A stretch of DNA of 32,000 nucleotides from Candidatus Saccharimonadota bacterium (GTDB lineage Bacteria; Patescibacteriota; Patescibacteriia; 2-12-FULL-60-25), in NCBI GenBank assembly GCA_023898425.1, contig CP060222.1, forward strand, positions 660,001 to 692,000. The letters are read 5' to 3'. Position 1 is the first letter of the stretch, and each line of letters opens with the position of its first letter. The notes under the pieces are model-generated. The model saw only the letters and a program-made list of their open reading frames with translations, searched no databases and had not been told where the DNA came from. A program made the position numbers and the translations under genes. Below, one piece after another: positions 2,821-19,070 of this stretch.

Positions 2821-3188
2821 AGTGAAAATACGACATCAATAACCCGTGGTCCGGCAATAAAAATGCCGACACAAAGGGCAAAAACGGAGGCAATCAATAC
2901 CGAAGCGGCCATTAAATCCTTTACTTCACCGGCATATTCATGCAGGCGTGGCTTCGCGAGATCTACCAAGCGTTCTAAACTACTGTTCGCCAATTCTAGC
3001 ACGAGCACAAGCACTGTCACAAGCAAGAGCGCGAATCTCTCCCAAAGCTCAAAAGGCAAGGCAAAAACAACAATTACTACCAAGACGGCAGCAAGGCTGT
3101 GGATACGAAAATTACGCTCTGTTCTAAAAGCAGTTACGATCCCTCGTAAAGCATTCTGAAAGCTACGCCAAAGACTGCGTCCGTTCAT
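2817..3188 (-). CDS. dgkA: Diacylglycerol/undecaprenol kinase, DgkA family
   Basis: 123 aa with three hydrophobic helices. The motif LELANSSLERLVD matches the prokaryotic DAGK E-x-x-N-[ST]-x-[IL]-E...D signature. It lies next to ybeY, as in many genomes. Its stop overlaps the ftsA start (ATGA). Confidence 0.85.
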   Translation of the reverse strand: MNGRSLWRSFQNALRGIVTAFRTERNFRIHSLAAVLVVIVVFALPFELWERFALLLVTVLVLVLELANSSLERLVDLAKPRLHEYAGEVKDLMAASVLIASVFALCVGIFIAGPRVIDVVFSL

Positions 3189-3622
3189 ACGTTCATGATC
3201 CTCTCTAGGAGCTCTTCTTGCAAGCGAAACATCACCATCTCCTCATCTTCAGTAGCATGATCGTATCCCTTAAGGTGTAAAACCCCATGGATCATCAATC
3301 GAAGCAATTCTTCTCGTGCTGAGATAGCACGACGCTTGGCTTCTCTTGTGGCATAAGAAGGACAAATAACAATATCCCCTAACTCAAATTCTACGGGTGA
3401 TTGCATCGCTGGATCTGCGTTAAATGAAAGCACATCTGTAGGTTTATTTATCTTGCGATACTGCTTATTTAATGTCTGAATTCGTTTTGGCGTGACAAAA
3501 GAAAGACTCACTAAGGTTGCCTTTCGTATTTTTAATTTTTTTGATAATAATTCTGCAGCGCGCGTGATATCGCGTTCAGAAAGCACTTTTGGCAAAGCCG
3601 TAACTCGTGTGAATTGGATCAT
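3185..3622 (-). CDS. ybeY: rRNA maturation endoribonuclease YbeY
   Basis: 145 aa containing HGVLHLKGYDH, the YbeY zinc-binding H-x-x-x-H-x-x-x-x-x-H motif. ATGA overlaps occur at both ends. Confidence 0.9.
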   Translation of the reverse strand: MIQFTRVTALPKVLSERDITRAAELLSKKLKIRKATLVSLSFVTPKRIQTLNKQYRKINKPTDVLSFNADPAMQSPVEFELGDIVICPSYATREAKRRAISAREELLRLMIHGVLHLKGYDHATEDEEMVMFRLQEELLERIMNV

Positions 3623-4998
3623 GGTGATGTTGTTGTGACATTAGGAATATCGACGGTACTTGTTGTCGTGACGGTATTTTCTGTTATTGCTGTAGTGGTA
3701 GTTGTAGCACCCACAACATCACCAGGACCATTTAACAAAGATTCTTCTGGAGGGATCATTTGTACCGGTGCGCCTTCGAGCTCTAGCGAGTTCAACATCA
3801 TCTCATAAATCGTGCGGTAATTGATATACGGCTTACTATCTGGATTGTATTTGAAGATAAAGACGCGTTCTCCCCAGGTGAATACCGCCTCTAAGCGATC
3901 TGGGCTCAAAATCCCCTCTAGACCTTGCTTTGTGGTTAATGAACGCAACATATCAGCCGTTGTTGTAGGACTTTTTGTAAGATACCAATCTTTTGCCGAG
4001 AGCTGCTGTGTATTTGGTACTACCTCGATCAAAAATCTTTCTCCTTGTCCCGTAACAATACTTGCTCTCTCGCCATCCGCGATATCCATCGAGCTCGTCC
4101 AAGCGGATGGCACGATAATCGACCAACCAATCGAGCCTTTAAACGATTTTACTAAGGTTGTATCTAAAATTTTTACTGGTGCTTGTGCCGCAGGATTATA
4201 AAGATGGAATACTTCGTTACCATCTAAGAACCCATCACGATCCGTATCGGGATTACGAGGATCTGTTGAGAAGACAAGCTCCTCGCTATCAGACAAACCA
4301 TCCGAGTCAGAATCAAGTCCTCCAGGTGGCAAAGACGGCGTCACGGGTTGCGCCGAAGCTACCGTCGCTAATGCTTCTGCAGAAGCAGGAGAAGCCCCGC
4401 CTTCGTTAACAGCAGAAATACGATATCGATAACTCAAACCAGCCGAAACACTTACATCAAGAAAAGATGTGCTATTTGCAGGTAGATTCGTCAAAATAGC
4501 AAAAGCTCCATCCGCCGTAGCGCGCTCTAAACGGAAACCTGTTTCGTCATTGGTTGCATCCAACCAAGTTAAGGTAATAGCTTGTGTACCACTCACTGAT
4601 GTCGCCATGATATTTGCTGGCGTTTGTGGAGGTGACTTTACAGGAGTTTCAATAACGGGAGGCGTTGTTACAATAGGTTCTTTTTTACCAAAAAGCGCTT
4701 CGCGATTTACATAAGCAAAACCACCACCGATCAAAAGCAAAATAATCAGCGCAAGAGCAATATATGGCCAAGGCGAAGGCTTTTCTTCTGCCATAGGAAC
4801 CAAAGCCTGTTTTGGCTTTGGTGGTGGCGGTGGTGTAGCGGGAGCAGGTGTTGGTGTTGCTTCTTTGGCCTCCATTTCGCGCGCATCCATCTTTAAAGCG
4901 ACGCCGTAGTATTTCTCCGGCATCACCACGATCTCTGGGGATCGTTTTGGTGACGATGGCGCTTCTGTGGGCGCTTTTGTCGCTTCAAAGGGATTCAT
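3619..4998 (-). CDS. Single-pass membrane protein: Pro-rich N-terminus, TM helix, FN3 domain, thrombospondin-type-3-like Ca-binding repeats, unknown C-terminal domain
   Basis: 459 aa. TM helix PWPYIALALIILLLIGGGFAYV at about aa 76-97. FN3-like segment ITLTWLDATNDETGFRLERA...YRYRISAVNEGGASPAS. Acidic repeats DSDSDGLSDSEELVFSTDPRNPDTDRDGFLDGNEV at about nt 4195..4317. Confidence 0.75.
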   Translation of the reverse strand: MNPFEATKAPTEAPSSPKRSPEIVVMPEKYYGVALKMDAREMEAKEATPTPAPATPPPPPKPKQALVPMAEEKPSPWPYIALALIILLLIGGGFAYVNREALFGKKEPIVTTPPVIETPVKSPPQTPANIMATSVSGTQAITLTWLDATNDETGFRLERATADGAFAILTNLPANSTSFLDVSVSAGLSYRYRISAVNEGGASPASAEALATVASAQPVTPSLPPGGLDSDSDGLSDSEELVFSTDPRNPDTDRDGFLDGNEVFHLYNPAAQAPVKILDTTLVKSFKGSIGWSIIVPSAWTSSMDIADGERASIVTGQGERFLIEVVPNTQQLSAKDWYLTKSPTTTADMLRSLTTKQGLEGILSPDRLEAVFTWGERVFIFKYNPDSKPYINYRTIYEMMLNSLELEGAPVQMIPPEESLLNGPGDVVGATTTTTAITENTVTTTSTVDIPNVTTTSP

Positions 4999-5001
4999 AC
5001 A

Positions 5002-5940
5002 TTAGGGGTTGAGTTTTGGCACCTCACACGTTGGTGTAGCGCACTTTCCGTCTCCACGGGGATTATAACCATTCTTAACCTCGTCACCATCCGGATATGT
5101 ATCTTTATCGGTATCTCTATTTAAAGGATTGGTGCCGTAAATTTTATTTTCATCACCATCTGTTAAACCATCACCGTCAGAATCTGGATTATTTGGATCT
5201 AAGCCTAGCTCGATCTCTTGTTGATCAGATAAACCGTCCTTATCAGTATCAACAACGCTCGTTGTAGATGGTGATGGTACCACTACAGGTGTTGATGTGG
5301 ATGGTAAAGGGATATTAACGCCAGAAGGAGGGATCGTGACCGGAGGTGGTAATGTTAATCCGCCCTTTGTTGTATCAACCTCTGTATCCGTTGACGTAGT
5401 CTCATTACTCGTTGGCGTAGTTGGGATAGGTGTTACCACATTTGTTGTTGTCGCCTGTGGAACGGTGTTTACAACAGGATCTTTTAACGTTGTGTCATTA
5501 GAGTTTTTATTGATCAATGTATAGATACCAAAAGCAGCTCCACCTAGTAAAACCAAAATCAATAAAGCAAGTAGCGCGACCTTCACCATAGATGGGCCCG
5601 TTGATGACGGTACTGGCGCCATTGCAGGCATCACCGGTGTACGCACAGGAGCACGGGTTGGCGCAGAATCCGCAAACATATCTTCTGGCTCTTGTGGCTT
5701 TGAAGACATGTCTTTATCTGTCATAGCCTCCGTAGGCATAGACTGAATTTCTGGACGTTGAGCTGCAACAGGCGCAGGAGCATTAAGCGCATCAGGCAAA
5801 GGGCGCACCGGCGTTGGTGTCGGTGAGTTTGATGCTGGTCTAGGTGTTGCTACCTGAGTTGGCTCAGGTGCTGCCATGGATTCTAATGCTTCGTCCGATA
5901 CATCGTCGGGTGCAAATGGTAAATTGTTTGGCGGATTCAT
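5002..5940 (-). CDS. Single-pass membrane protein with Pro/Thr-rich regions and a C-terminal TSP3-like Ca-binding repeat tail
   Basis: 312 aa. TM helix VALLALLILVLLGGAAFGIY. The tail reads DTDKDGLSDQQEIELGLDPNNPDSDGDGLTDGDENKIYGTNPLNRDTDKDTYPDGDEVKNGYNPRGDGKC (about nt 5005..5256). Confidence 0.72.
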   Translation of the reverse strand: MNPPNNLPFAPDDVSDEALESMAAPEPTQVATPRPASNSPTPTPVRPLPDALNAPAPVAAQRPEIQSMPTEAMTDKDMSSKPQEPEDMFADSAPTRAPVRTPVMPAMAPVPSSTGPSMVKVALLALLILVLLGGAAFGIYTLINKNSNDTTLKDPVVNTVPQATTTNVVTPIPTTPTSNETTSTDTEVDTTKGGLTLPPPVTIPPSGVNIPLPSTSTPVVVPSPSTTSVVDTDKDGLSDQQEIELGLDPNNPDSDGDGLTDGDENKIYGTNPLNRDTDKDTYPDGDEVKNGYNPRGDGKCATPTCEVPKLNP

Positions 5941-5957
5941 AGGCGTTTATTCGTTGA

Positions 5958-6497
5958 TTATACAGGTTGATACAGCGCATCTCCCTCTCCTAATGGATTA
6001 TACCCGTTTTTGATTTCATCCGCATCATTGAAGCCATCACCATCGGTATCAGCCTTATTTGGATCGGTGCCGTAGCGGGCTTCTTCGGTGTCGGGGATGG
6101 AGTCGGAGTCTGAGTCAAGCGAGCTATCTATGCTATTAGATTCATCCACATTTAAATCACTGTTTACCTCTTCTAATACATCTGGCTGTGGATTTAGGGC
6201 TGCTTTTGCTAATTGTTCATTGATGGTGGTAGCAATGTTTTCTTCAGTAGCTTCTACATGACCTTCTGTATAAAACCCTTCGCTTGGCGGATTAGCTATC
6301 CTCTCCACGGACAAGACCGGTATATCATTCGTTGAGGTTGCTTTATTTGTGCCAGATATGACATCAGATACCGTAACCGACACTCCTTCATCGGCTATCT
6401 CTCTATTTCTAAGCCAATAGATACCCGTCAACAATAATGAAATTCCTGTAACCACTGTTAAGATAAAAACGTTTTTTTTGTTGATTGTATTGATCAT
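5958..6497 (-). CDS. Signal-anchored small protein with a C-terminal TSP3-like Ca-binding repeat tail
   Basis: 179 aa. N-terminal hydrophobic anchor VFILTVVTGISLLLTGIYWL. The tail DSDSDSIPDTEEARYGTDPNKADTDGDGFNDADEIKNGYNPLGEGD shares its EVKNGYNP/EIKNGYNP ending with the 312-aa neighbour. Confidence 0.68.
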   Translation of the reverse strand: MINTINKKNVFILTVVTGISLLLTGIYWLRNREIADEGVSVTVSDVISGTNKATSTNDIPVLSVERIANPPSEGFYTEGHVEATEENIATTINEQLAKAALNPQPDVLEEVNSDLNVDESNSIDSSLDSDSDSIPDTEEARYGTDPNKADTDGDGFNDADEIKNGYNPLGEGDALYQPV

Positions 6498-6503
6498 ATT
6501 ACT

Positions 6504-7631
6504 TTATCTTGCATCCCTGAAATTTAGGTACGTCACTCCAGAATCCTCTCCAGTGACCCGGCATTGAGAATTGATAAGCTTGTTCTGTATTGTTATATCC
6601 CCTGTTTTTTCGTTCTGTGAAAAGACATGCCACGCATGAACGTCCGTAGACGTACCTATACCACACGATGTCTTTGACGCAATATCTTTATAATTTAGAG
6701 TATACATATTTTGCGATGTGATCACACGAACACGTAGCCCTAACAATCCTGCATAGGTTTCAGGGTAACGCAATCTGAACGTCCCATCATTATACTCAGT
6801 CTTATAAGTGAAATCTACGATATATTGATAGTTGCCCGTGCCTGTATTCCAGCTAGGGTCTCTACGATAGGCGTCTGTACGTGGGAAAGAATTAGATATT
6901 CCAAATGGATAATTACAGTGTAAATTTATATTTGAATTATCATTTGGAGACGCATTATCTGGTAACACATATCTACCTGGACTTACCTTATCTTTTTGTG
7001 ACCAAGGCGTATAACAAGCCAGATAGGCATGTGGCCAATGCCCTAGATCTATATTCATATCTCCTCTATAAAAATCACGGAAACAATCAATATTGTCTTG
7101 ATTATTTTGCGATGTCCAATTACATGGGTGACTTGGCTCAAACTTGTAAGGACTAGCTGATAAGCGAGTACCATAAGCTACGTCATTACCATCACGATGC
7201 CCCATACTTGGTGGCAAGTACAACCTATTTGTAAAGTATTGGGTTAGATGCTCATTACCACTAGTCTCAGTACCATCAAGAATAACGTAGGTTTCGTTTT
7301 GAGCTACTTTTGGCGCAAGATATAACTTTGCAATCTCCGATCTACTATTGAACGAAAATTGATTTGATTCATATGGCCAGTAACCTCCATTAGCTCCCTC
7401 ATCTGGTTCTGGGATATTTTTGAATGGTTCATCTGGGCTTATTGCTGGATCATAATCTGTAAATTTAACAGGGTTTGTCCCAGGGATAGGCATTCTGTAT
7501 GGGCTATTGTTTACTGTGTATTTCAATACACCCCAAGGCTGTCCATCACATCCATTAAAAGGTCTTCCGGTTTTGACCCCGTACAAATATTGTCTTTGTA
7601 ATAATCGACCACGATTTTGTAGCTTGAACAT
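6504..7631 (-). CDS. Hypothetical Asn/Tyr/Trp/Cys-rich protein with no recognisable family; start uncertain (ATG 7631 or ATG 7493)
   Basis: 375-aa ORF. The first 109 nt overlap the giant gene in another frame. Starting at M47 (7491..7493) removes the overlap. No signal peptide from either start. Six Cys lie after M47. The region is visibly more AT-rich than its neighbours. Confidence 0.6.
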   Translation of the reverse strand: MFKLQNRGRLLQRQYLYGVKTGRPFNGCDGQPWGVLKYTVNNSPYRMPIPGTNPVKFTDYDPAISPDEPFKNIPEPDEGANGGYWPYESNQFSFNSRSEIAKLYLAPKVAQNETYVILDGTETSGNEHLTQYFTNRLYLPPSMGHRDGNDVAYGTRLSASPYKFEPSHPCNWTSQNNQDNIDCFRDFYRGDMNIDLGHWPHAYLACYTPWSQKDKVSPGRYVLPDNASPNDNSNINLHCNYPFGISNSFPRTDAYRRDPSWNTGTGNYQYIVDFTYKTEYNDGTFRLRYPETYAGLLGLRVRVITSQNMYTLNYKDIASKTSCGIGTSTDVHAWHVFSQNEKTGDITIQNKLINSQCRVTGEDSGVTYLNFRDAR

Positions 7632-10600
7632 GCGGGATTTTTCAGAATGTTTTCAAATCTATATTTGCCATCTTTATCTGCTATCACATCCTTAACACGA
7701 AGCCCACGGCTAAAGAGTGTAACGCGTGCTCCAGGTATAGGGTAATATCGATACAACGCATCAAGCACCTGACCTTCAATCACACCGTCTCCAATTGCAT
7801 CCGAACATTTAGCACAACCAGAATACTGACACGTATTGTTACAAGTAATTTCATCACGTCCACTCACCTGACGATTCGCAAAGTCATACCCAAGCGCCTT
7901 ACAGCTTACATTTGGATCAATAGCAACACCTGCTTCACATTGCTCTGGGCTATTTTCATCAACACGTCCATTGCCACAGTACCCACCTGACTGCGCTACT
8001 TGCTGACAAGAAGTCGTACAGGCGAGACACGTTGAACCATAGTCGGCACCATCTGGACATGCGCCACCGTTTTGTGAGCCGAGATCACATTGCTCAACGC
8101 CTGCGTTAATTTTTCCGTCACCACAAATATTCTTTTTACACGAATTTGTATACGTGTCGGTATCGCTACGATTACCGTCATCGCATTCTTCGCCTTGGTC
8201 GACGTTACCGTCTCCACAAGAGCCGACTGGTTTACAGCCAGACCAGTCAGCAAATTGACACTGATTCTGCAAGCCTGGAGACGTACAAACACGCATATTT
8301 TGTGTTTCGTACTCTGCGCAAGTACCGCCTACAGAGGCACAATCGCTATTTGTATTACACGAAACAAAGTTATTCTCTGGAGTTTTAACGGTACAATATT
8401 TCACAGGAGAACAGCCTTCTTTTGTTGTTTCGACATTACCATCGCACTTCTCATACGGAGCGTCGACTTTATTATCACCACAAAATGGCGCAACACCCTG
8501 ACATGATTGAGAACAGGTTAATGCCGCATTACAACCCGGGCCACAATACTCACCATTACGATTACCCAAATCGCAGAGCTCACCCGGTGCTAATTTGTTG
8601 TCACCACAGTAACTATCATAGCCTGTACAGGTACGATTACAGCGACCATAGGTACCATTAAGCGCACTTCCGTCATCACAAACTTCGAGAGTAGGTAGTT
8701 CTGTACATGTGATATTCGAACCTACCGGATCACCCGGTGACTGACATTCGGCTGCATTGCCTGCGTTAGTACATGCTTGACCATACTTTAACCCCTCACC
8801 ACCAAGACACTGTGCACGGTCAATACGACCATTGCCACACATGCTTTGTGCAACACAGGTAGCATTTGATGAATCAACAAAGCCTTTACAATCGTTACAG
8901 ACTTGTAGTTTTGTCCCTGCTGCACCGGAGGCTGTAGAACAAGAAGCGCCACGCGTATCCCCTACTTCACAGACTTCGTTTGTACCGATAACACCATTAC
9001 CACAAACATCGTCTTGGCCGTACTCGGTACCTTGGCAAATACCGCTGTACTTCCAAGTGCCACCAACCGTGAGACATTGACCCGTAGAAACTTGAGCGCC
9101 CGTTGGGCTTGTAACGGTACAATTCGCATCAACAGAACAAGGGCTATCGATATTTGTACAACGCTTAGCTTCTGTTTGTAGTGATGGCACATAACGTGAG
9201 GCATCTGCTGCTTCGAGCTCTGTTCCGAGTTCGAATCGACGGCCACCATCTACGGCACGATATTGATAAATACGTGATACCGATGCTTGTGGTGACGAGG
9301 TATTCAAAACAGGACACATATATCTCTTTGAGATTGTGTTCCAACACGTTGTCGCCTCGAGGCCTGTTTGATTTGCAGGTACATTACAAGTTTGACCAGT
9401 ACCACAATCTGAATCGGTCATACACGCTGATTGTGACGTAGAACAGAATCCACAAGACAAGAAGCGATTTACAGGATCCGTAGCACCGTTATCACCAAAG
9501 ACGGTTTGCCAGCTCGGCCAACGACTCGTCGACATACCCTGAATAAAGCTACCACTATCAAGCGTTGGATAGGTGCCGTTTTGCTCTTTTGTAAGCTCAA
9601 GATTATTACTCATGCGAGAAATATCGGCGATACGCTTAAGATCACGCTGTAACTTAGGCTTAAAGCTCGCACAACGTAGATTGGTATTCTTTTGTAAACA
9701 CTCCCAATCTGCCGTACAAGTGACGCGAGCACCGTTTTCACGATAGGTTTCGCTTACCGAATGACCTGGTTCAGCGATGGCATATTCACAAGCATTTTGA
9801 ACATCATCTTGAAGATTTGCGTTTAAGAAGAAGTTTGCAACAAGCTGATCAAAAATACCTTGCGTGATCTTACTTGCATCGGGGTTACGTGAAATGATGT
9901 AGATATTTGGATAAACGTCGCCATTAGCAAGATCGTTTGTATTTGCTGCCGAAACATAAACAGTAGCTCCATCTTTGAGTGCCTCGTAACCATCGACCGT
10001 TGCTGACTGCGGTGAACCCGAGAACCCTTTTGATGCAAACCAATCACGTATATTTAAGTGCAGTGGATTAGACATCACACGAATACCGATACCATCCCCT
10101 GCTAATTCTGGTGAGCTAGCTGTATCAAAACTAAGAAGATATTGACGTAATACACCTTGTGCACGATCAGCATTTGATAGCTCCACATGAACAGCATTCA
10201 TCGAAGGTAGATCATCTGCTGTGAGATCAAGACTCTCTCCATCGCGACAATACATCGTAGAGAAGTTAAAGAATGTTGGGCCATTAGCTATTTCAGGAGC
10301 ATAATGAGCAAGAGCATCAGAGTTTTCTACATCAGCAAATGCACCCAGATTACGTGCTGGCCATGGATTTTCACAAAGAAGAGCTGTACTCAATAATGCT
10401 CCTCGAATAATTTGATTTGTTGACGAAGGTGTTGTGACGGCATCGTTTGTAATACGTAACTCAGCTGAAATATACGAGCTTCCCATCTTGTCTTTTGAAG
10501 AAACATCTGCCTGTGTGCCACCGACCTGATTTCCGGCGATACCAGCAACAGAGAATACCGGCTCTTCAGAAGAGCTCCATGGCTGCCACTCCCAATTATA

Positions 10601-13600
10601 TTCTGTAACAGGTGACAAGAGCGAAGCGGACCCTGCCTGAACCGAAACAACTTGAGCATTGTACCGATGGGTCTCGTTTACTTTTGTAAAGGTAGCTGGT
10701 GAATCAACGTTTGTATCCGAAACACGAATATCCGATATCGTACAAATGCTTGCACCTGTAGTAAATGGCCAGAATTGTGATCCTGACATTACAACACCGC
10801 GCTTAGACATAATGCCCGTTTTACCATCTGGGTTATCCGTAAGATTTACGTCGCCACGTACCAATACACCGTATTGTGTATTCGCTTTTAATGCCGAAGA
10901 GATATACAAGTATGCCGTCGTTTGACCATTTGATTCTGTTGTAGAAATCGTTCCTTTTACACTGCCTGCACAATACACATCCGCTTGAGCTGGCTTTACA
11001 AAGAACGCGGTTACCCAGTTTTTGATTTTTGCAAACCAACCTTGCGGAGAAGCTTGTACGATAGTGACATCCTCAAGACCAGCAGGACACGCAGTACCTG
11101 AATGTACTTCAGTAATAATCAAATGATTCGTAATAGACTGCTCATCCATTAGCGTATTGAACTTAAGAGTGAAAGCTGTATTGCGACATACACCCGTTGC
11201 GCCTGAAGCTGGTGTCGCCGAGACAATATCCGGACGTGGCGCACAGCAACCCGATTGATCAAGGCCAGTCCCACTAGGACAAGACAGCTCCGTCGTATAA
11301 CCACATTTTAACCCATAGACCGCTGAACCTGTTTTTTGTGTGACGGTTGCGTTTAGCACCGAGCTCATAAGTCCGCTTGCATCTGGGTTGGCTTCGCCTA
11401 CGATTTCAGCTAGCTGAATGGCATCTGGGCTTGTACCAGCACCTGCACTTTCACACATAATGGATTCACCGATACCTGTGACACCATCACCACAGAAAGA
11501 AGGGTTGATATAGGATGCAGACGAACCCTCTAAGAGACAACTACTCGAACAGCCGTCACCTGCTACTGAATTTCCGTCATCGCAGGTTTCGCCTGCAGTA
11601 AGATCTGTATTACCGTTGCCACAACAAGCACCGATACTGGTACTGGTACATGCTTGCGTACCCGTCTTGAGACAGGTGTTTGCATCACAGCCTGCGATAG
11701 GCCATACACCGCCGATTTTTTCACAGGTCTCACCGGCTTCTTGAATACCATTGCCACAAAGCGCAACAACCGCTGTTGATCCTTCGTTGGTACAAATACT
11801 GCTACAGCCGTCACCGCTACGCGTATTACCGTCATCACAAGACTCCCCGTCAGCAATGTCTCCATTACCACAAGTAGAACCACCTTCGTTTGCTCCCAAT
11901 ACCTGACAATCTGCTGAACAGCCCGGTGTACCATTTGGACCTGGGTCACATTGCTCCCCACGATCAATAGTTCCATTACCACATTGTGCGCTCGCTGAAG
12001 GCTTCCAAAGACACTGCGAAGAACAGGTTGCTGTTTCTGAACCTTCGTCACACTCTTCGCCACCTATAGCATCTGCAGACAAGATGACACAATTATCTCC
12101 AAAAATCGTACGCCCATTAATACAGTAGGCGGCATTTTTTGTTTCGACGATACGGTTTCCGCAAGAAGCCGTTTTTCCTGCGACACCTGTAGCACCGGTT
12201 TGGATACAACGGTCTGTACAACCTGCTGCACGATTTTTTGATGTACTCACCAAGCCTGTAGAAGGAGCGTTTCCGTTACCACCATTAATAAAGCGACTTA
12301 CGTCACCGCTTTGATCAATAGACCAATTGTAAGACTGGTTATTTGAGAGGATCTGTCCTTTTTGTGAACAGCTATCAGGAGCGGATTTTGTGCTTGCCGC
12401 AAACAATTGTCGTTGACCAACAACTGTTTCGATCTTTTTCATCGGCGAAACATCAACAGCCGCAATACCGCACATCGTGTCATCTGAGTCTTTTACACGG
12501 AAGGTCCATGTATATCCCTCAGGGCTATTTAAGTCGGTAAGGAGTAAGCCATCAACCGATCGCACACCCTGCAAAGTACCACCACGAACCGTAACTTTAT
12601 AGAACTTACCACGTTGAAGCAGTGTATTGCCTTGGTTATCCAACATGTCTAGCTTTGCAAAACGTAGCTTTGGATCATTTGAGCCAGGTACCGCCGAAAG
12701 CGTTGCCGAAGGTAATTGACTTGGCATCCAAATTTGATCAAAGGTGCGGCAATTTTCATTGGTACAACGACGTACTTCAAAGGCATTTGCTACAGAAGCG
12801 GCATTCATTGGCACACTGAACTCAGCCCATACGGCAGCATTGCTACAGGCGCTGTCACAACCCGGACCATAATTAACTATTGTTGGAGGCTGTGGACGAA
12901 TATAGAGATCGGCTGTATCAAGATAATCTTCACCACCAAGTACGATAGCAAGCTCAACTTTGACAGGGTCATTACCCGTATCAGCAAGACCTGTTGCAAC
13001 TTGATCAAGAGACTGTGTTTGGCCATCAATAGTATTTGTGATAGATGCACGACCATCTGAAGTAGACCATTGTGCTGTATACGTAAGACCATTCCAGTTC
13101 ATCACGATACAAGCATCCTCTCTTGGATAACCAATAACGGTATAGTCACGTGTTTCATTTAAGGTGCTCATCTCTGCTGTATTTGGCAATACATCAATAC
13201 TTCCTAAGAGACAAACATCCGCTTCGTTACGTGTTTTAAACGTAAAACAGTATGCATTACCAGCGCCACACTCGGTATTTTCTGCCATTGGAATACCTGT
13301 TGAGGACAAGATGCCTGTAGTAAGAACAACTTGATAGGTTGATTGTTCGATCCAAGTACCACCAACAACCTGTGCTTGAATATATCCTTCGTCACCATTA
13401 GTACCTACTCGTGGGTAGTTTGGGGCAAAATCAACCAACTCTTTTGTGACACAAGCGTCAGCACCTGATCCTGTACAACGATAAAGCTGAATGGTACGGG
13501 ATGAGCCGGTCCCTACAATGCTTGTCTCATCTAGATGAGTATTAAAGCGCAAATACACGTCACTATTTACACAAACATTATTTCCGCCTTGATGGTTACT

Positions 13601-16201
13601 CCATGGCGAAGGTGATGGAGGTTTATTTTGGCTACATTCTTCGATAACCAAAGGATTAACCGGGATAATACCCGTAGAAACCGTCCAAGCAAATTGAGCC
13701 GATGTAACAGCAGCCGCACAGACACCACCAACCGAACAAGCACCTGAAGCACAACATTGTTCGCTTGCACCACAAATACCGGCATTTTCTTGACAGCTTT
13801 GCACGGCAAAAGGCACCGCATTTGAGTTTACGGCATTGACGGCTACCGACACATTGCCCGTTCGTGAACCCGCTGGCACAAAAGACGAAACCGTCTGACT
13901 CGTCCAATCCCCGCTTTCAACTGTTGCATCAACGCGCGCGGTGCCTGTACCCGTAAAGGTAAGTTGACCAGCATTTGAAAAATTCTCACCAACGACGTCG
14001 ATAGGTGTTCCAACAGGACCTGATGCTGGGCGAATCGCACAAATACCAGGAGTAGGCGTACCACTCTCAACCACAAAGCTCGCCGCCGAAGATGCGACAG
14101 CATCAGAACGCTCAAGAACAACAGTATAAGGCCCAGGAGCAACTGCTTCGTTTCCAATACCCGCACTGACATTTGCAGGAACCTTAACGGTGACCGCTGT
14201 ATTTGACCAAAAGCCTGTACCACAAGCTGCTGGAAAATTTGTATCTGCAATACCCGTTGCACCATCAGCACGTTTAAAGGTTACCTTACCTACCGTATTA
14301 CCAAAGTCCGTACCTTGAAGGGTAATATATTGCCCGATAGCACCACGATCCGGCGTAATACTATTAATTTTTGGCGCTGATGCAGCTGTTCTCGTATCGA
14401 TTCTAAAGGCTCGTTGATTTGAAGAGATATTGTTTGATACGACAGAAACCGGATAGTTTGCCGGAGTATAAACAGGGGTATTTAAAATAATCGATGTGTC
14501 GGACCATGTTTGCACGGTTGATGCTTCGCGATCAGCAAAAAAGACTTTTCCGGCTGTTGCACCAAAGCCAATACCACGAATCTCGATACGATCACCACTA
14601 AAACCTGAGTCTGGTGAAATCTGACATATCGCAGGATGAGCAACATCATTAACAACAAAAGGCTCTAAAACAGGACCGTTTGTATCAATTGAAGAATCCG
14701 TAAGATTATTTGTTGCATGTTGCACATCAAGTCCACCCGTCTCAGCGCCAGCAGGTACCTCTACAAGAATTGAATTACTCGTCCACGTTGCAACACCGCT
14801 TGCAAGACAAGCCTGCGCCGGTTGCGCCACGACACCATTCGTAAAGCGAACGGTTCCAGGCGAATTACCAAATCCACGACCCGTAATTGACACGACGGTT
14901 CCTGGGCGACCATCTAGAGGTGAGATACCTGTAATGAGCGGCGCATCGACACAGATATTATTCACACAAGCGCCCGAAGAACAATCGCTATTACCAGTAC
15001 AACTAGTGCCTGAGCAAGCGCCGCAAGATCCTCCACAATCAATCGCCGTTTCATCACCATTCAATAAACCATCAGCACAGTAAGCAGGACGAACGGTAAT
15101 TGTTATTGAATTTGAATTGGTAAAGTTTGAATCTAAATCAAAGACTTTTACAGAGAGCGTGTGGCTTCCTGGTGTTAAAATCGTTGAGTCAATCTGACCA
15201 GAAAGCGTCGTAACCCCATTATCAGTGCCAGAAATAACGGCATTACCTCTCGTGCTGCCGTCTAAAAGAATTTCTGCCATTGAGATACCCGAATCATCGG
15301 TTGCTGTAGCAGATACAGAAACCGAGTCGCCCTGCACAAAAATCGCTCCGTTTAATGGTGTGACAAGACTAACGCTTGGCGCTTGTGTATCCACAAGATC
15401 ACCTGTTTCAAAATCCGCTGTACATGCTGGTGCAAAACCGCCACATGTAATCGCGAGTCCTGATACTGAACGCGTACCGCTTCCAACACGAATGGTAAAA
15501 CCTGTATTTGCCTCTAAACATTTACGATCTTCGTTTGGTGCTGGACATGTTGCCGTAGGGACAAAGGTTGCTACCGAACCGATAAGCAACCACTCACCTT
15601 CGACAGCTGATTGATCCGATGTTTTAACAACCTGAATATCAGCATTCGTCGCATCTACTTCGCGAGAAAAAACGATACGAGGCTCAACATTACGCAAAGG
15701 CACTGAACCCGTAGGTGTTATGCTTTGAACTTGAAAAGATTGGCTTGAGCCTCCCCCACCTAAGCCACCACCGGAGCCAGAACCACCAGAGCCGCCACTA
15801 CCACCATTATTCCCATTGGTAGCAGACAATAACGTACTAATAACAAAAGCCGTGATCCCCCATGCTGACAAAATAATCACTAAACCGATAACGGCATTGG
15901 TAAGGGTTCGTTTTGCTTTTGCGATTTTTTCTGCATCTCCTCCAGAAGTCATCCATGTAAAACCCGCATACAAAATAATCAAAACAAGAATGATTCCGAT
16001 AATTCCGAGTGTTGCATTGATAATACGCACGATAATGGTGCGCGGATCTGTTCCTGATAGGTTTACCGTTTGACCCACTTCGTTGAGGCCAAGCGTGTCT
16101 TGTGTTTGCGCAAGAACTGATGGCGCATAAACAGCAAGAGCCATCATGACGATGATGGCGGCAAGTGGGGCGATCCAGCCCAATAAACGTTTGTTTTTCA
16201 T
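7523..16201 (-). CDS. Giant (2892 aa) surface protein: signal peptide, VirB2/TrbC-like pilin hairpin, Gly/Ser linker, Ig-like domains, 4x IPT/TIG, SbsA/Big_5-like Ig domains, two arrays of CGNG...CDDGN...GDGC Cys-rich repeats, and a C-terminal carboxypeptidase-regulatory-like beta domain
   Basis: Uninterrupted 8679-nt ORF with ATG at 16199..16201 and TGA at 7523..7525. The N-terminus MKNKRLLGWIAPLAAIIVMMALAVYAPSVLA|QT is followed by two TM helices around LYAGFTWMTSGGDAEKIAKAK. The domain motifs are read directly from the translation. Confidence 0.92.
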   Translation of the reverse strand: MKNKRLLGWIAPLAAIIVMMALAVYAPSVLAQTQDTLGLNEVGQTVNLSGTDPRTIIVRIINATLGIIGIILVLIILYAGFTWMTSGGDAEKIAKAKRTLTNAVIGLVIILSAWGITAFVISTLLSATNGNNGGSGGSGGSGSGGGLGGGGSSQSFQVQSITPTGSVPLRNVEPRIVFSREVDATNADIQVVKTSDQSAVEGEWLLIGSVATFVPTATCPAPNEDRKCLEANTGFTIRVGSGTRSVSGLAITCGGFAPACTADFETGDLVDTQAPSVSLVTPLNGAIFVQGDSVSVSATATDDSGISMAEILLDGSTRGNAVISGTDNGVTTLSGQIDSTILTPGSHTLSVKVFDLDSNFTNSNSITITVRPAYCADGLLNGDETAIDCGGSCGACSGTSCTGNSDCSSGACVNNICVDAPLITGISPLDGRPGTVVSITGRGFGNSPGTVRFTNGVVAQPAQACLASGVATWTSNSILVEVPAGAETGGLDVQHATNNLTDSSIDTNGPVLEPFVVNDVAHPAICQISPDSGFSGDRIEIRGIGFGATAGKVFFADREASTVQTWSDTSIILNTPVYTPANYPVSVVSNNISSNQRAFRIDTRTAASAPKINSITPDRGAIGQYITLQGTDFGNTVGKVTFKRADGATGIADTNFPAACGTGFWSNTAVTVKVPANVSAGIGNEAVAPGPYTVVLERSDAVASSAASFVVESGTPTPGICAIRPASGPVGTPIDVVGENFSNAGQLTFTGTGTARVDATVESGDWTSQTVSSFVPAGSRTGNVSVAVNAVNSNAVPFAVQSCQENAGICGASEQCCASGACSVGGVCAAAVTSAQFAWTVSTGIIPVNPLVIEECSQNKPPSPSPWSNHQGGNNVCVNSDVYLRFNTHLDETSIVGTGSSRTIQLYRCTGSGADACVTKELVDFAPNYPRVGTNGDEGYIQAQVVGGTWIEQSTYQVVLTTGILSSTGIPMAENTECGAGNAYCFTFKTRNEADVCLLGSIDVLPNTAEMSTLNETRDYTVIGYPREDACIVMNWNGLTYTAQWSTSDGRASITNTIDGQTQSLDQVATGLADTGNDPVKVELAIVLGGEDYLDTADLYIRPQPPTIVNYGPGCDSACSNAAVWAEFSVPMNAASVANAFEVRRCTNENCRTFDQIWMPSQLPSATLSAVPGSNDPKLRFAKLDMLDNQGNTLLQRGKFYKVTVRGGTLQGVRSVDGLLLTDLNSPEGYTWTFRVKDSDDTMCGIAAVDVSPMKKIETVVGQRQLFAASTKSAPDSCSQKGQILSNNQSYNWSIDQSGDVSRFINGGNGNAPSTGLVSTSKNRAAGCTDRCIQTGATGVAGKTASCGNRIVETKNAAYCINGRTIFGDNCVILSADAIGGEECDEGSETATCSSQCLWKPSASAQCGNGTIDRGEQCDPGPNGTPGCSADCQVLGANEGGSTCGNGDIADGESCDDGNTRSGDGCSSICTNEGSTAVVALCGNGIQEAGETCEKIGGVWPIAGCDANTCLKTGTQACTSTSIGACCGNGNTDLTAGETCDDGNSVAGDGCSSSCLLEGSSASYINPSFCGDGVTGIGESIMCESAGAGTSPDAIQLAEIVGEANPDASGLMSSVLNATVTQKTGSAVYGLKCGYTTELSCPSGTGLDQSGCCAPRPDIVSATPASGATGVCRNTAFTLKFNTLMDEQSITNHLIITEVHSGTACPAGLEDVTIVQASPQGWFAKIKNWVTAFFVKPAQADVYCAGSVKGTISTTESNGQTTAYLYISSALKANTQYGVLVRGDVNLTDNPDGKTGIMSKRGVVMSGSQFWPFTTGASICTISDIRVSDTNVDSPATFTKVNETHRYNAQVVSVQAGSASLLSPVTEYNWEWQPWSSSEEPVFSVAGIAGNQVGGTQADVSSKDKMGSSYISAELRITNDAVTTPSSTNQIIRGALLSTALLCENPWPARNLGAFADVENSDALAHYAPEIANGPTFFNFSTMYCRDGESLDLTADDLPSMNAVHVELSNADRAQGVLRQYLLSFDTASSPELAGDGIGIRVMSNPLHLNIRDWFASKGFSGSPQSATVDGYEALKDGATVYVSAANTNDLANGDVYPNIYIISRNPDASKITQGIFDQLVANFFLNANLQDDVQNACEYAIAEPGHSVSETYRENGARVTCTADWECLQKNTNLRCASFKPKLQRDLKRIADISRMSNNLELTKEQNGTYPTLDSGSFIQGMSTSRWPSWQTVFGDNGATDPVNRFLSCGFCSTSQSACMTDSDCGTGQTCNVPANQTGLEATTCWNTISKRYMCPVLNTSSPQASVSRIYQYRAVDGGRRFELGTELEAADASRYVPSLQTEAKRCTNIDSPCSVDANCTVTSPTGAQVSTGQCLTVGGTWKYSGICQGTEYGQDDVCGNGVIGTNEVCEVGDTRGASCSTASGAAGTKLQVCNDCKGFVDSSNATCVAQSMCGNGRIDRAQCLGGEGLKYGQACTNAGNAAECQSPGDPVGSNITCTELPTLEVCDDGSALNGTYGRCNRTCTGYDSYCGDNKLAPGELCDLGNRNGEYCGPGCNAALTCSQSCQGVAPFCGDNKVDAPYEKCDGNVETTKEGCSPVKYCTVKTPENNFVSCNTNSDCASVGGTCAEYETQNMRVCTSPGLQNQCQFADWSGCKPVGSCGDGNVDQGEECDDGNRSDTDTYTNSCKKNICGDGKINAGVEQCDLGSQNGGACPDGADYGSTCLACTTSCQQVAQSGGYCGNGRVDENSPEQCEAGVAIDPNVSCKALGYDFANRQVSGRDEITCNNTCQYSGCAKCSDAIGDGVIEGQVLDALYRYYPIPGARVTLFSRGLRVKDVIADKDGKYRFENILKNPACSSYKIVVDYYKDNICTGSKPEDLLMDVMDSLGVY
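7799..9013 (-). repeat. Cys-rich repeat array 2 (degenerate CGNG/CGDN/CGDG...C(D/E)...C units) inside the giant gene
   Basis: Repeat units seen: CGNGVIGTNEVCEVGD, CGNGRIDRAQC, CDDGSALNGTYGRCNRTC, CGDNKLAPGELCDLGNRNGEYCGPGC, CGDNKVDAPYEKCDG, CGDGNVDQGEECDDGNRSD, CGDGKINAGVEQCDLGSQNGG and CGNGRVDENSPEQCE. Confidence 0.65.
11442..12063 (-). repeat. Cys-rich repeat array 1 (Myxococcus-type cysteine-rich repeat pattern) inside the giant gene
   Basis: Repeat units seen: CGNGTIDRGEQCDPGPNGTPGCSADC, CGNGDIADGESCDDGNTRSGDGCSSIC, CGNGIQEAGETCE..., CGNGNTDLTAGETCDDGNSVAGDGCSSSC and CGDGVTGIGE. Confidence 0.7.
13798..14941 (-). repeat. Four tandem IPT/TIG-like Ig domains (protein-level repeats) inside the giant gene
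   Basis: The four repeats start at PLITGISPLDGRPGTVVSITGRGFG, PAICQISPDSGFSGDRIEIRGIGFG, PKINSITPDRGAIGQYITLQGTDFG and PGICAIRPASGPVGTPIDVVGENF. Confidence 0.75.
15743..16201 (-). other. N-terminal module of the giant protein: signal peptide, pilin-like two-TM hairpin (aa 33-126) and Gly/Ser linker (aa 127-153)
   Basis: The segment TDPRTIIVRIINATLGIIGIILVLIILYAGFTWMTSGGDAEKIAKAKRTLTNAVIGLVIILSAWGITAFVISTLL is followed by NGNNGGSGGSGGSGSGGGLGGGGSS. Confidence 0.7.
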
Positions 16202-16207
16202 GTGAAA

Positions 16208-18145
16208 TTACGGAAGTCTTATAGGAGCAACACATCCACCCGCTTGTGGACGACCATTACAGCAATTAGGATTTTGCGTATTTGCAGCACAGCTCACGGA
16301 TGCGGCTGGTACATAACAATTTTGATACAGATTCTGAATGCCAGAATTAAGCACCGGTTGATAAATCGGCACAATTGCTGTAGCGCCTGTACCAGTAGCC
16401 GCAACAAAGAGACGATGATCGATCGTAATCTTACCAAGCGATGTTGTGTCACCAACGCCTGCTACAGAACCTGCGGATGTAAGCGGTTGATAGGATGCCG
16501 ACCACCAAAAAGTATCCGCCATACGTGCTGGCTCATTTGTCTGCAGAACAACTTCGTCACTATTGACCGTTGATGCACGTAAAGGCGTATCAAACGTCGC
16601 ATCAATCATTGCATCAACTGAAAGATTACTCGAAGCACCAGCATCACCGGCGCGTGGATTTGTTGAGCGAATAACCGGAGCATCTAAGTTTGGTCTGTCC
16701 GTCGTCTGAAATGTCCAACCGTAGTCATCATTACCTGCTACAGCATCGCTATCAGAACCTTGGGCTTGATTATCGCCATTACCATCTAAAGAATTGCTCG
16801 CAAGATCTACAATACCATCATACAGAGAACCTGATACGGCAGCTGTTGGTGGATTATCACTCAAGGTTGCTGCTTTTGCGACCACAGCAATAGCCGTGCT
16901 CGCAGGCAAACAATAGATTGTTGAACCACAAGAATTTGTGCCACAGCTTTGATCGGTGACAAATTCTAAGGTTCGGTATTGATTTGATAATTTAAATGAG
17001 CCATTAGGACGCGTTGTCCCGCCAGCCGTCACCTGAACATTGGTAAATCCTGAACCATTTTGAAACATTCCTGATGCAGAAACAGGATCAACCGCTTCGC
17101 TAAACTGCATTTGCACAATCACGTTTGGCGCATAGGAGCCGCCGTCAGTAGGAATAACCGAAGTTACACGTGGAGGCGTATTATCGATGATGGTCGATAC
17201 TTGAAATTGCCATTTATATCCTGCGCTAAAACTCCCTCCGAATGCAGCTGAATTATCTTCTCGACGCAAACCGTTTAATCCTCCAACAAACTCAACCGTA
17301 TAATCCGTGTCTACGGTTGGGCTACCGAGATATTGCACGGGACGAATCACAAAGGTCTGACGATCGTCGGTAAAACTTACACGCGCCTCGGTTGTGGATA
17401 AAGCCTGATCACGTTTACCGGATGGATATACTTTTACAATGTCCGCATTTAAGCCGATGGTTGTCGTGCGACCAGCATCATCAGCAAGATTTGAAGGTGT
17501 CCCATTGTCGTCATAACCAGCAATCATGGTTGAAAGCTTGATTGGTTCTTTGAAGGTGATAACGATGGCTGTATTACGCGCAATACCGGTTGCATCACGA
17601 GCCGGAATATGAGACTCGACGATCCCTGCACCGAGCGCACCGGCAGAACCAGGAAATCCACCATTATTACCAAACGGGTCACCTGTACCGGATCCGCCGC
17701 CAAGACCACCATCGCCCGCTAAAAGCCCGATAACAAATGCGGTGATCGCAAAAGAAGAAACGATGATAATTAACCCAATAATACCGTTACGAATCCAGAG
17801 TTTTGCTTTTTCGATTTGTTCATTATTGCCACCCGCCGTCATCCACAACCAACCTGCATAGATGATAATAACGAGCAATACGATACCCATGAAACCCAAA
17901 AAGATATTGATGATACGACCAATAATCGTAGGAAGATCCGTTTGCGTTTCTAAACCGGTGGCAGCACCAACTTCGGTGAGACCTGGGTCAACGGTTTGTG
18001 CAAAGACGGCGGATGGGGCGGCAAAAAAAGCGACGCAAAAAAACACCGCAATCACGACAGCGAAAATACTCGCCATCCGTGATCGTGCGGTGCTTCTTAC
18101 GGAACCATCCGAAAGCATGGGAAGGAGGGATCCAAACATGTACAC
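16208..18145 (-). CDS. 645-aa surface protein: signal peptide, VirB2/TrbC-like pilin hairpin, Gly-rich linker, three SbsA/Big_5-like Ig domains, Cys-rich C-terminus
   Basis: The ORF-track start at 18145 is GTG, and an ATG lies at 18137..18139. Signal-like stretch ASIFAVVIAVFFCVAFFAAPSAVFA|QT. The hairpin PTIIGRIINIFLGFMGIVLLVIIIYAGWLWMTAGGNNEQIEKAKLWIRNGIIGLIIIVSSFAITAFVIGLL is paralogous to the giant gene's N-terminus. Big_5-like starts include PPRVTSVIPTDGGSYAPNVIVQMQFSEAVD. Confidence 0.88.
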   Translation of the reverse strand: MYMFGSLLPMLSDGSVRSTARSRMASIFAVVIAVFFCVAFFAAPSAVFAQTVDPGLTEVGAATGLETQTDLPTIIGRIINIFLGFMGIVLLVIIIYAGWLWMTAGGNNEQIEKAKLWIRNGIIGLIIIVSSFAITAFVIGLLAGDGGLGGGSGTGDPFGNNGGFPGSAGALGAGIVESHIPARDATGIARNTAIVITFKEPIKLSTMIAGYDDNGTPSNLADDAGRTTTIGLNADIVKVYPSGKRDQALSTTEARVSFTDDRQTFVIRPVQYLGSPTVDTDYTVEFVGGLNGLRREDNSAAFGGSFSAGYKWQFQVSTIIDNTPPRVTSVIPTDGGSYAPNVIVQMQFSEAVDPVSASGMFQNGSGFTNVQVTAGGTTRPNGSFKLSNQYRTLEFVTDQSCGTNSCGSTIYCLPASTAIAVVAKAATLSDNPPTAAVSGSLYDGIVDLASNSLDGNGDNQAQGSDSDAVAGNDDYGWTFQTTDRPNLDAPVIRSTNPRAGDAGASSNLSVDAMIDATFDTPLRASTVNSDEVVLQTNEPARMADTFWWSASYQPLTSAGSVAGVGDTTSLGKITIDHRLFVAATGTGATAIVPIYQPVLNSGIQNLYQNCYVPAASVSCAANTQNPNCCNGRPQAGGCVAPIRLP

Positions 18146-18586: not shown

Positions 18587-18616
18587 AGTATGAACTACTT
18601 TAACGGATAAGAACAA

Positions 18617-18676: not shown

Positions 18677-18919
18677 TTAACGGCGTCCTTTTTTGCGTTT
18701 TTCTTCTTTGAGCTGACCTGTTTTCATGAGGTATTCGTACTGTTGACTCATGAATTCGCGGCGAAGAGCCCCGAAGCGGCGACCATTACGGTTTGGACCG
18801 CCATCGTGGAAACGACGTTTTTTGGCTTCGATTTGTTTGCCGCTGGACTGAAAGCGACGCTGGAAGCGGCGCAACATAGCGTCAAATGTTTCGTTTTTCT
18901 TGCGATTGATTTGTACCAT
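18677..18919 (-). CDS. rpsU: 30S ribosomal protein S21
   Basis: 80 aa, very basic. MVQINRKKNETFDAMLRRFQRRFQSSGKQIEAKKRRF fits the S21 pattern (F-[DE]-x-A-L-R-R-F-K-R). A strong SD, AAAGGAG (complement of 18929..18935), lies 9 nt before the ATG. Confidence 0.85.
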   Translation of the reverse strand: MVQINRKKNETFDAMLRRFQRRFQSSGKQIEAKKRRFHDGGPNRNGRRFGALRREFMSQQYEYLMKTGQLKEEKRKKGRR

Positions 18920-19001: not shown

Positions 19002-19032
19002 TAAGTCAAATTGGGCCTGAATCATCCCCTGC

Positions 19033-19054: not shown

Positions 19055-19070
19055 CGACTGACTCTGACCT

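Follow-up and report, generated by a model that had tools for sequence, protein, structure and literature searches.

A considerable part of the known diversity of bacteria belongs to the Patescibacteria, the majority of which are thought to be attached to other cells. The VirB2/TrbC pilins of this phylum, which match the Pfam family T4SS_pilin (PF18895) and include the array of Southlakia epibionticum, are of small size, and their genes form arrays close to virB4 (PMC12102498). In this study, we analyzed a block of minus-strand genes between yqeY and ybeY in a 32,000-nucleotide (nt) stretch of a Patescibacteria genome (contig CP060222.1, positions 660,001 to 692,000; the whole stretch is hereafter called the window). 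The corrected block consists of five genes, which encode, in this order, a 645-amino-acid (aa) pilin-headed protein with immunoglobulin (Ig)-like domains (gene 1), a giant pilin-headed protein of 3,232 aa (gene 2), and three bitopic membrane proteins with TSP3 repeats of 179, 312, and 459 aa (genes 3, 4, and 5; Table 1). We tentatively propose, with a confidence somewhat short of even, that this five-gene module encodes a membrane-anchored surface fiber, which would carry a variable distal tip and a calcium-binding basal trio.

The two pilin-like heads share with the VirB2 pilins of Patescibacteria a signal peptide, two helices, a basic loop, the profile match, and the phylum, whereas the hairpin here is only the first ~140 residues of a 645- or 3,232-aa protein. 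Furthermore, the module has exactly two heads, evidently paralogous, and its genes are located away from those of any type IV secretion system (T4SS) within the 10 kb inspected. The heads also resemble the Mbov_0395 family pilin-like conjugal transfer protein (NF045849) of an integrative and conjugative element (ICE) of Mycoplasma, which is likewise a single-membrane bacterium; however, the NF045849 model has 80 positions and covers the head only, and ICE or conjugation genes are absent around the locus.

The giant has its closest counterparts in the fibrillar adhesins, i.e., the repeats-in-toxin (RTX) adhesins of type I secretion systems (T1SS), such as SiiE, LapA, and MpIBP, and the CnaB/Ig stalk adhesins and sortase pilins of Gram-positive bacteria, which similarly have a long Ig-like chain, calcium elements nearby, and a distinct distal region. 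Unlike these proteins, which use a retention module of the T1SS or a link of the LPXTG/sortase type, the giant is anchored by an N-terminal VirB2-like hairpin, and the gene lies in a housekeeping operon with no dedicated secretion system beside it. The stalk is non-repetitive and collinear between relatives, in contrast to repeat adhesins with a variable array of near-identical repeats. Neither RTX repeats, an LPXTG motif, nor a transporter was matched in or near the block by Pfam or NCBIfam, and the predicted export signal is N-terminal. The trio of TSP3 proteins resembles the Myxococcus gliding adhesin CglD and cohesion protein MtsD (TSP3_bac, PF18884) only in the acidic calcium-binding repeats; in the trio, these are located at the tail of small single-pass proteins, two of which have conserved motifs N-terminal to the transmembrane (TM) helix. 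The NCBIfam similarities of the trio are accordingly confined to the TSP3 regions of CglD and MtsD (20 to 32 bits versus whole-protein cutoffs of 400 to 800). As an analogy of function only, the dockerin-cohesin pairs of the cellulosome also combine paired calcium-binding loop-helix modules with Ig-like β-sandwich proteins encoded beside them, and a comparable arrangement would allow calcium-dependent docking of the trio onto a fiber base. Dockerin (PF00404) and cohesin themselves were rejected as assignments, since neither profile matched a protein of the block at E ≤ 0.01.

The original prediction held that the composition of the block matches no described system, and our searches of full-text literature yielded no account of giant proteins with a pilin head or of such a block of genes. 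Profile searches did not assign the proteins to unrelated known systems, and the predicted absence of an enzyme, transporter, ATPase, or regulator among the genes was borne out by the Pfam and NCBIfam scans. The module is real, widespread, and so far undescribed, although its kind, a membrane-anchored fibrillar surface apparatus, is already known and not categorically new.

Pilin-like heads and the giant protein

The T4SS_pilin profile matches the head of the giant with 45.4 bits (49.5 bits for the N-terminal chunk) and that of the 645-aa protein with 30.6 bits, both above the gathering cutoff of 26.6. NF045849 is the best NCBIfam match of both heads (giant, 41.1 bits; 645-aa protein, 36.9 bits; cutoff, 40), while TrbC (PF04956) reaches 22 to 25 bits at the head of the giant, below its cutoff of 27.9. 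The two heads are 48% identical over 121 aa (residues 23 to 142 of gene 1; E = 4e-19) and, as judged from this alignment, are paralogous. According to the hydropathy scan, both proteins have a signal peptide followed by two TM helices with a short basic loop between them. In gene 1, the signal peptide spans residues 24 to 42 with a predicted cleavage site of VFA|QT (an A-x-A|Q site, of which AQ is conserved in the family alignment), and the TM helices are at residues 78 to 96 and 125 to 143. They are followed by a Gly-rich linker, an Ig-like ectodomain with a Big_5 match (58.7 bits), and a Cys-rich C-terminal cap. The 645-aa family contains more than 680 clusters with identities of 43 to 86%, and a sequence search of known structures with this protein gave no match.

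The original prediction described the hairpins as polymerization-type and VirB2-like. The family assignment stands at the level of the domain, whereas polymerization is unproven. Instead of being small hairpin-only proteins, the heads carry ectodomains of ~500 aa (gene 1) and ~3,100 aa (giant), and the features that define a pilin gene, small size and a T4SS context, are absent. Pfam searches of the called genes found no VirB4, VirB6, or VirB3/TrsD family member in the window or within 10 kb of the locus in the other contigs for which gene tables were made (L001 to L010, L091, and L092). PF18895, which we found in the literature only as a VirB2 marker in T4SS surveys and in a structure-cluster survey, therefore also occurs as an N-terminal module in very large proteins of the cell surface, away from T4SS loci, which is relevant to VirB2 surveys that count profile hits.

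These heads could nevertheless be genuine pilins that are polymerized by a T4SS encoded elsewhere in the genome, with the Ig-like ectodomain and the giant displayed as adhesin subunits on the shaft or tip of the pilus. In solved conjugative pili, the termini of the pilin face outward, so that a C-terminal extension is displayable in principle. The signal peptide, two hydrophobic helices, and basic loop are arranged as in VirB2, and NF045849 is at its cutoff for the giant. Polymerization from elsewhere is conceivable because both heads pass the PF18895 threshold and because Patescibacteria T4SS loci encode arrays of VirB2-like pilins, which are essential in Southlakia (PMC10633639, PMC12102498, and PMC12857230). 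However, virB4, virB6, trsD, and every other T4SS gene are missing from the window and from the 10 kb around each inspected locus, the TrbC match is below threshold, and a helical shaft would offer little steric room for 500 to 3,100 added residues in each subunit. We know of no characterized VirB2 with a large ectodomain. Among the relatives of the window discussed below are some labeled Uhrbacteria, which we take to belong to class ABY1. In that class, the T4SS is reported to be located beside comF, recG, and radA (PMC12102498), which also argues against this explanation, and we regard it as a serious but rather improbable rival.

From the N terminus, the giant consists of the signal peptide, the VirB2-like hairpin, a Gly-rich linker, a Big_5-like domain, Big_7, three TIG domains, Cys-rich myxo_disulf/DUF4215 repeats, a second Big_5, a conserved region of 560 aa (residues 1860 to 2420), more Cys-rich repeats, a CnaB/CarboxypepD_reg-like sandwich, and a variable tip. 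It contains 146 Cys residues, and its Cys-rich repeats are matched by NCBIfam TIGR02232 (a repeat-level similarity). In the conserved region, which has no match in Pfam or the PDB, numerous Trp, Tyr, Cys, and Asp residues are invariant; a sequence search of known structures with the giant returned only TIG/cyclodextrin glycosyltransferase domain D. Within this region, residues ~2192 to 2217 (nt 9560 to 9640, minus strand; KLQRDLKRIADISRMSNNLELTKEQNGTYP) gave a weak match to the pseudopilin family T2SSG (E = 0.11, in one of six homologues). The segment resembles the amphipathic helix and G-x-YP motif found in the globular domains of type IV pilins, and it is possibly a pilin-derived module without the hydrophobic helix, or possibly a chance similarity.

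In the window, the giant is read as two open reading frames (ORFs) of 2,892 and 375 aa. The original prediction accordingly counted six genes, all of which are present as ORFs, and regarded the shorter one as a Cys-rich, lectin-like protein without an export signal; this protein proved to be an artifact, being the variable C-terminal tip of the giant. The minus strand of the window has AAAACCGG at the frameshift site where relatives have AAAACCCGG, i.e., one C is missing from a run of C. A single 3,232-aa ORF with one extra C is present in two short-read assemblies that are independent of each other, L005 (Logan SRR12358676) and L007 (ENA ERZ28656179), which were retrieved among contigs with an identical 645-aa protein and are 99.8% identical to the window. 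The single ORF of 3,232 aa is also seen in P0122. By tblastn, the 375-aa sequence follows directly after the C terminus of the giant in the same frame in L001 (83% identical in the 645-aa protein) and in L002 and L003 (58%). An exhaustive phmmer search of 1.84 billion representatives matched it only as the C terminus of proteins of 3,175 to 3,410 aa or their fragments; a word-based (k-mer) search found only the ORF itself, and Pfam gave no match. The shorter ORF overlaps the 2,892-aa ORF by 109 nt in another frame, so the claim that no gap in the block exceeds 29 nt does not hold at this junction; the gap of 29 nt arises only if translation starts at Met47.

Compared with L005 and L007, the window has three more single-base indels in A-runs (positions 23680, 23601, and 23187), which break the enolase gene. 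The enolase region (23115 to 24447) is split into ORFs of 262 and 105 aa, whereas the short-read assemblies of the same organism have an intact enolase of 420 aa. Since these further homopolymer indels break enolase, we conclude that the split of the giant is best explained as a homopolymer error in a consensus that was presumably built from long reads. A separate orphan gene was rejected on the phmmer result, and a programmed frameshift was rejected given the two short-read assemblies, in which the ORF is intact with one additional C, and the three indels in enolase. Because the 375-aa sequence forms the distal portion of a protein with an export signal, the supposed orphan lacking such a signal does not exist; the signal peptides or TM anchors predicted for five of the six proteins were all found in the hydropathy scan, and the sixth protein no longer exists as such. 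The apparent orphan gene in this deposited metagenome-assembled genome is an artifact of a homopolymer indel. The giant is also called in pieces in two other long contigs: L001, as many small ORFs (11825 to 17032), and L091, as a 167-aa T4SS_pilin ORF (11763 to 12266) followed by ORFs of 1,584 and 2,033 aa. These are probably further frameshift artifacts, although L091 may have a separate small pilin gene.

Five full-length giants of distant relatives are collinear with that of the window. Up to residue ~2850, they are ~40 to 50% identical to it and nearly free of gaps, while the last ~330 residues are only 17 to 30% identical and have many indels. Complete homologues are 2,966 to 3,410 aa in length, i.e., of roughly fixed size. 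The same boundary is seen with a sister species (L012), in which the identity is 80 to 87% at residues 2000 to 2500, 55 to 70% up to residue 2896, and 19 to 30% with indels from residue 2897 to the end; in summary, identity to this species drops sharply at the tip, from ~80% to ~27%. The tip of ~340 residues defined in this manner retains conserved Cys residues and a GGYWPYES motif. An AlphaFold2 model of the tip, based on an alignment of 10 sequences, has a predicted local distance difference test (pLDDT) score of 54. Foldseek with the tip-region model gave a weak match only for the CnaB/transthyretin-like sandwich of ~65 residues that precedes the tip (UafA, BcpA, SdrD, and Cna; E = 0.004 to 0.1, none ≤ 0.001). 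Internal DNA repeats of the giant are limited to short Cys-rich units. Variation of the tip by a diversity-generating retroelement was rejected, as there is no template/variable repeat in the tip region and no reverse transcriptase-like ORF in the window.

Along the giant, the ratio of nonsynonymous to synonymous substitution rates (dN/dS) between the window and strain L004 is 0.01 to 0.25, and dS is 0 to 1.09; gene 1 and the head of the giant are virtually identical in the two strains. The giant is under purifying selection and is a recombination mosaic between strains, as the dS of 1.09 beside segments with a dS of 0 indicates. Considered together, the conservation, the purifying selection, and the divergence of the tip mark the giant as a protein that is functional and under constraint, the distal end of which is exchangeable or evolves fast. 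Differences between the window and strains L004 to L008 cluster in the middle part of the giant (10205 to 13803; residues ~800 to 2000, especially 1500 to 1800). Among strains of 99.8% identity, there are 4.4 differences per kb in this part versus 0 to 0.7 elsewhere; compared with L004, segments with dS values up to 1.09 stand beside segments with a dS of 0.

The TSP3 membrane proteins and conservation of the locus

Genes 3, 4, and 5 each encode a protein with one TM helix in the hydropathy scan. The prediction of three TSP3 proteins is supported by TSP3_bac matches above the cutoff of 25 for the 312-aa (46 bits) and 179-aa (35.7 bits) proteins; the 459-aa protein reaches only 18.8 bits, while its acidic residues are invariant in the family. 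The loops fit the acidic calcium ligand pattern D-x-D-x-D-G-x-x-D-x-x-E, so that calcium binding is predicted. In gene 3, the TM helix is N-terminal (residues 10 to 28) and the acidic TSP3 repeats, e.g., DTDGDGFNDADE at residue 150, are C-terminal. Gene 4 has a Pro-rich N terminus of ~120 aa, in which the motifs NLPxEP and EPEDIF are conserved in the 312-aa family, and the TM helix (residues 121 to 139) is followed by a Thr/Pro linker and two TSP3 repeats (residues 231 and 253). In gene 5, the conserved motif PEIVVMPEKYYGVALKM precedes the TM helix (residues 79 to 97), which is followed by a fibronectin type III (fn3) domain (residues 126 to 208), two TSP3 loops (residues 229 to 262), a conserved α+β domain (residues ~280 to 420), and a Thr-rich tail.

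The 459-aa family contains more than 439 clusters. In an alignment of 68 sequences, Asp229, Asp231, Asp233, Gly234, Glu239, Glu240, Asp253, Asp255, Asp259, Gly260, Asn261, and Glu262 are invariant, and Asp237 and Asp251 are conserved in at least 90%. The AlphaFold2 model has a pLDDT of ~95 for the fn3 domain and the C-terminal α+β domain. The latter has no sequence match in Pfam or the PDB, and the order of its strands and helices gives the impression of a PsbP/Mog1-like fold. Structure search matches of the protein are dominated by fn3, which was also the only result of the known-structure sequence search with the family.

One genome per GTDB species was scanned with the profile of the 459-aa family, which yielded 236 species, and 80 of the loci were examined. 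The C-terminal part of the giant is located upstream of the gene 5 homologue in 80 of 80 loci where the contig reaches, and ybeY-dgkA-ftsA follows downstream in 79, the remaining contig ending too soon. The distance from the stop codon of the giant to the start of the gene 5 homologue is 1.0 to 1.9 kb across the loci, at 459-aa identities down to 38%. Most loci have two ORFs in this interval. The first ORF, with its TM helix at the N terminus, is either 185 to 250 aa long with two to five TSP3 motifs or, in a subset of the more distant loci (among L028 to L088), 80 to 117 aa long without TSP3. The second, of 270 to 416 aa, has the TM helix at residues ~70 to 150 and usually one to four TSP3 motifs, and it is longer (340 to 416 aa) in more distant loci. 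According to the gene tables, yqeY, the 645-aa homologue, and the giant occur in this order in the window and six further organisms, with 645-aa identities down to 43%, and rpsU-yqeY is likewise found upstream in these loci. Where the contig continues, TSP3 proteins come next, and L010 has the giant, TSP3 proteins, an fn3 protein, ybeY, dgkA, ftsA, and ftsZ in series. Comparison of the two hit lists revealed at least 21 contigs of ≥20 kb with homologues of both the 645- and 459-aa proteins. The gene order is therefore kept in every locus with enough contig, both among the 80 species loci and in L001 to L010, L091, and L092, as the original prediction had proposed for relatives.

These observations bear on the possibility that the five genes are independent surface-protein genes that are neighbors by chance and form no functional unit. 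The first small ORF indeed varies in length and TSP3 content between loci, and a TSP3 protein is also encoded elsewhere in the window (27488 to 28435). However, order and spacing are kept in the 80 species loci even where the 459-aa identity falls to 38%, the 645- and 459-aa families occur on the same contigs, and the gaps within the block are 3 to 17 nt. Owing to this synteny, chance adjacency is very improbable.

The median identities to the window over the 80 loci are 50% for FtsA, 51% for DgkA, 45.5% for YbeY, 43% for the 459-aa protein, and ~36% for the stalk of the giant; the last value is weighted by high-scoring segment pairs and lowered by redundant pairs from repeats. The module proteins thus diverge only slightly faster than their housekeeping neighbors. 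The module is best read as vertically inherited in an Uhrbacteria-like lineage of Patescibacteria. The closest relatives by the 645- and 459-aa genes are labeled Uhrbacteria or "Patescibacteria group." In Bacillus subtilis, rpsU-yqeY and ybeY-dgkA are also part of one conserved gene string, and the module therefore gives the impression of having been inserted long ago into an operon of housekeeping genes. Many related contigs (L013, L014, L017, and others) were deposited as "uncultured Gammaproteobacteria bacterium" (TPA binchicken, SRP co-assemblies) yet carry the Patescibacteria-type locus, and the "Nomurabacteria" label of the window record disagrees with its Uhrbacteria-labeled relatives. 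Both labels look like taxonomic mislabels.

Such conservation also suits an envelope scaffold or surface layer (S-layer)-like lattice, in which gene 1 and the giant would form stalk and canopy, the TSP3 proteins would organize the lattice, and adhesion would be secondary or absent; the logic is that of the archaeal SlaB/SlaA pair. The module is present in single copy at its locus, syntenic, and inside the housekeeping and division string in every locus, its divergence is near that of FtsA and YbeY, and the giant is under purifying selection, roughly fixed in length, and collinear. Dependence on Ca2+ is common in S-layers, and Big_5 corresponds in InterPro to the "SbsA Ig-like" domain, known from an S-layer protein in Geobacillus. 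Periodic surface layers have been observed on groundwater candidate phyla radiation (CPR) cells (PMC7906910). On the other hand, a 3,232-aa protein with 146 Cys residues and a hypervariable distal tip is unlike known lattice-forming S-layer proteins, and, Big_5 aside, neither an SLH domain nor another S-layer anchoring domain was found by Pfam or NCBIfam. We consider a scaffold of this type unlikely, yet it carries appreciable weight.

Layout of the locus and flanking genes

The coordinates of the module and its flanks are listed in Table 1. The G+C content is even across the block and flanks. Intergenic gaps within the five-gene block are 6, 6, 17, and 3 nt, and the distance from the end of yqeY to gene 1 is 3 to 30 nt, depending on the choice of the gene 1 start codon. 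The rpsU-yqeY gap is 60 nt, and from yqeY through ftsA the genes are separated by no more than ~30 nt or overlap, with overlaps of 4 nt at gene 5-ybeY, ybeY-dgkA, and dgkA-ftsA. A site 5′ of rpsU is a candidate start of this long transcription unit; it is a consensus match only, and promoter-like sites as a class were not enriched over shuffled sequences. Terminator-like signals inside the block were not above chance in the same type of comparison, and internal terminators or promoters that would divide the block were rejected on this basis.

Table 1. Coordinates of the five-gene module and flanking features in the window
Feature	Position (nt)	Strand	Basis or remark
Gene 1, 645-aa pilin-headed Ig-like protein	16208..18145	-	636 aa if start is Met10 (nt 18118)
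PF18895 head of gene 1, aa 68-135	17741..17944	-	Pfam
Gene 2, giant, 3,232 aa with missing C restored	6504..16201	-	ORFs and relatives
PF18895 head of giant, aa 54-119	15845..16042	-	Pfam
2,892-aa ORF (giant as read in window)	7523..16201	-	ORF list
375-aa ORF (giant as read in window)	6504..7631	-	ORF list
Frameshift site, one C missing from C-run	7569..7571	-	Base-level alignment to L005 and L007
Variable C-terminal tip of giant, corrected aa ~2897-3232	6504..7514	-	
Gene 3, 179-aa bitopic protein	5958..6497	-	ORF, TSP3_bac, TM scan
Gene 4, 312-aa bitopic protein	5002..5940	-	ORF, TSP3_bac, TM scan
Gene 5, 459-aa bitopic protein (g459)	3619..4998	-	ORF, Pfam, TM scan
Candidate sigma-70-like promoter, TTGACG-17-TATATT, 5′ of rpsU	18973..19001	-	Best coding-strand consensus match
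rpsU (S21)	18677..18919	-	Upstream flank
yqeY	18149..18616	-	Upstream flank
ybeY	3185..3622	-	Downstream flank
dgkA	2817..3188	-	Downstream flank
ftsA	1561..2820	-	Downstream flank
ftsZ	from ~1451 off window edge	-	Downstream flank

The hisS-rpsU spacer (19001 to 19122) is unalignable between strains that are otherwise 99.8% identical, with a length of ~120 nt in the window and ~24 nt in L005 (compared with L005/L007 and L004/L006), and gene callers mark either S21 or an antisense ORF of 90 aa in this region. The fourth TSP3-repeat protein of the window (315 aa, minus strand) is encoded between gap and tsf, away from the cassette, and has a layout opposite to that of the trio, i.e., an N-terminal signal peptide, five acidic calcium-binding loops, and a C-terminal TM anchor, which was read by eye and not flagged by the hydropathy scan. 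At the DNA level, the TSP3 repeats of this gene fall into one family (D1) with the repeats in the cassette genes.

A proposed surface fiber

The original prediction was of a Ca2+-dependent, envelope-anchored adhesion or fiber structure. An envelope-anchored, Ca2+-dependent surface structure is still the best reading of the module, but it is not a niche accessory island, as it is located in the string rpsU-yqeY...ybeY-dgkA-ftsA-ftsZ. In the fiber that we tentatively favor, the hairpins would hold the gene 1 product and the giant in the cytoplasmic membrane with their C-terminal ectodomains outside. The giant would be a stalk of roughly 100 nm (an estimate from ~30 modules of ~4 nm each), the variable tip of which may contact the surface of a partner, such as a matrix or the cell of a host. 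Through its head, the 645-aa paralogue would pair with the head of the giant and serve as a co-anchor or short base. At the base of the fiber, the three TSP3 proteins may form a Ca2+-stabilized collar, and their N-terminal tails, which are taken to be cytoplasmic, would couple the collar to the cell interior. The module would be transcribed constitutively together with the housekeeping and division genes. Pili-like appendages on the surface of groundwater CPR cells have been seen by cryo-transmission electron microscopy to reach host cells (PMC7906910).

Several points weigh against this fiber. The putative binding role of the tip follows only from its position and variability, and the model of its fold has a pLDDT of only 54. 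For the three small proteins, an N-in topology is deduced from the types of domain they contain. The calcium-binding trio is not universal, being a duo and a mini-protein in part of the lineage, and contact among the five proteins is a proposal. Moreover, the housekeeping-like conservation and the adjacency to ftsA and ftsZ also fit a structural envelope role without adhesion. A core envelope function in fact fits at least as well as host-specific adhesion, because the module is located inside a housekeeping string, diverges nearly as its neighbors do, and encodes a giant under purifying selection.

In a bolder version, which we regard as quite improbable, the heads would be true polymerizing pilins, and the module would encode a T4SS-family filament in a single-membrane cell, with a 3,100-residue stalk that ends in an exchangeable recognition domain and a Ca2+-dependent bitopic collar whose tails are tied to the division apparatus. 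If this were true, host contact would be coupled to cell division through the co-transcribed genes. To our knowledge, contact molecules of Patescibacteria are not known outside the few cultivated Saccharibacteria. The module described here, present at a fixed position in at least 236 species-level genomes, is a concrete, lineage-wide candidate for a contact structure of these bacteria, and its membrane hairpin, stalk of roughly fixed length, and fast-evolving tip yield clear predictions on attachment in uncultured Patescibacteria.

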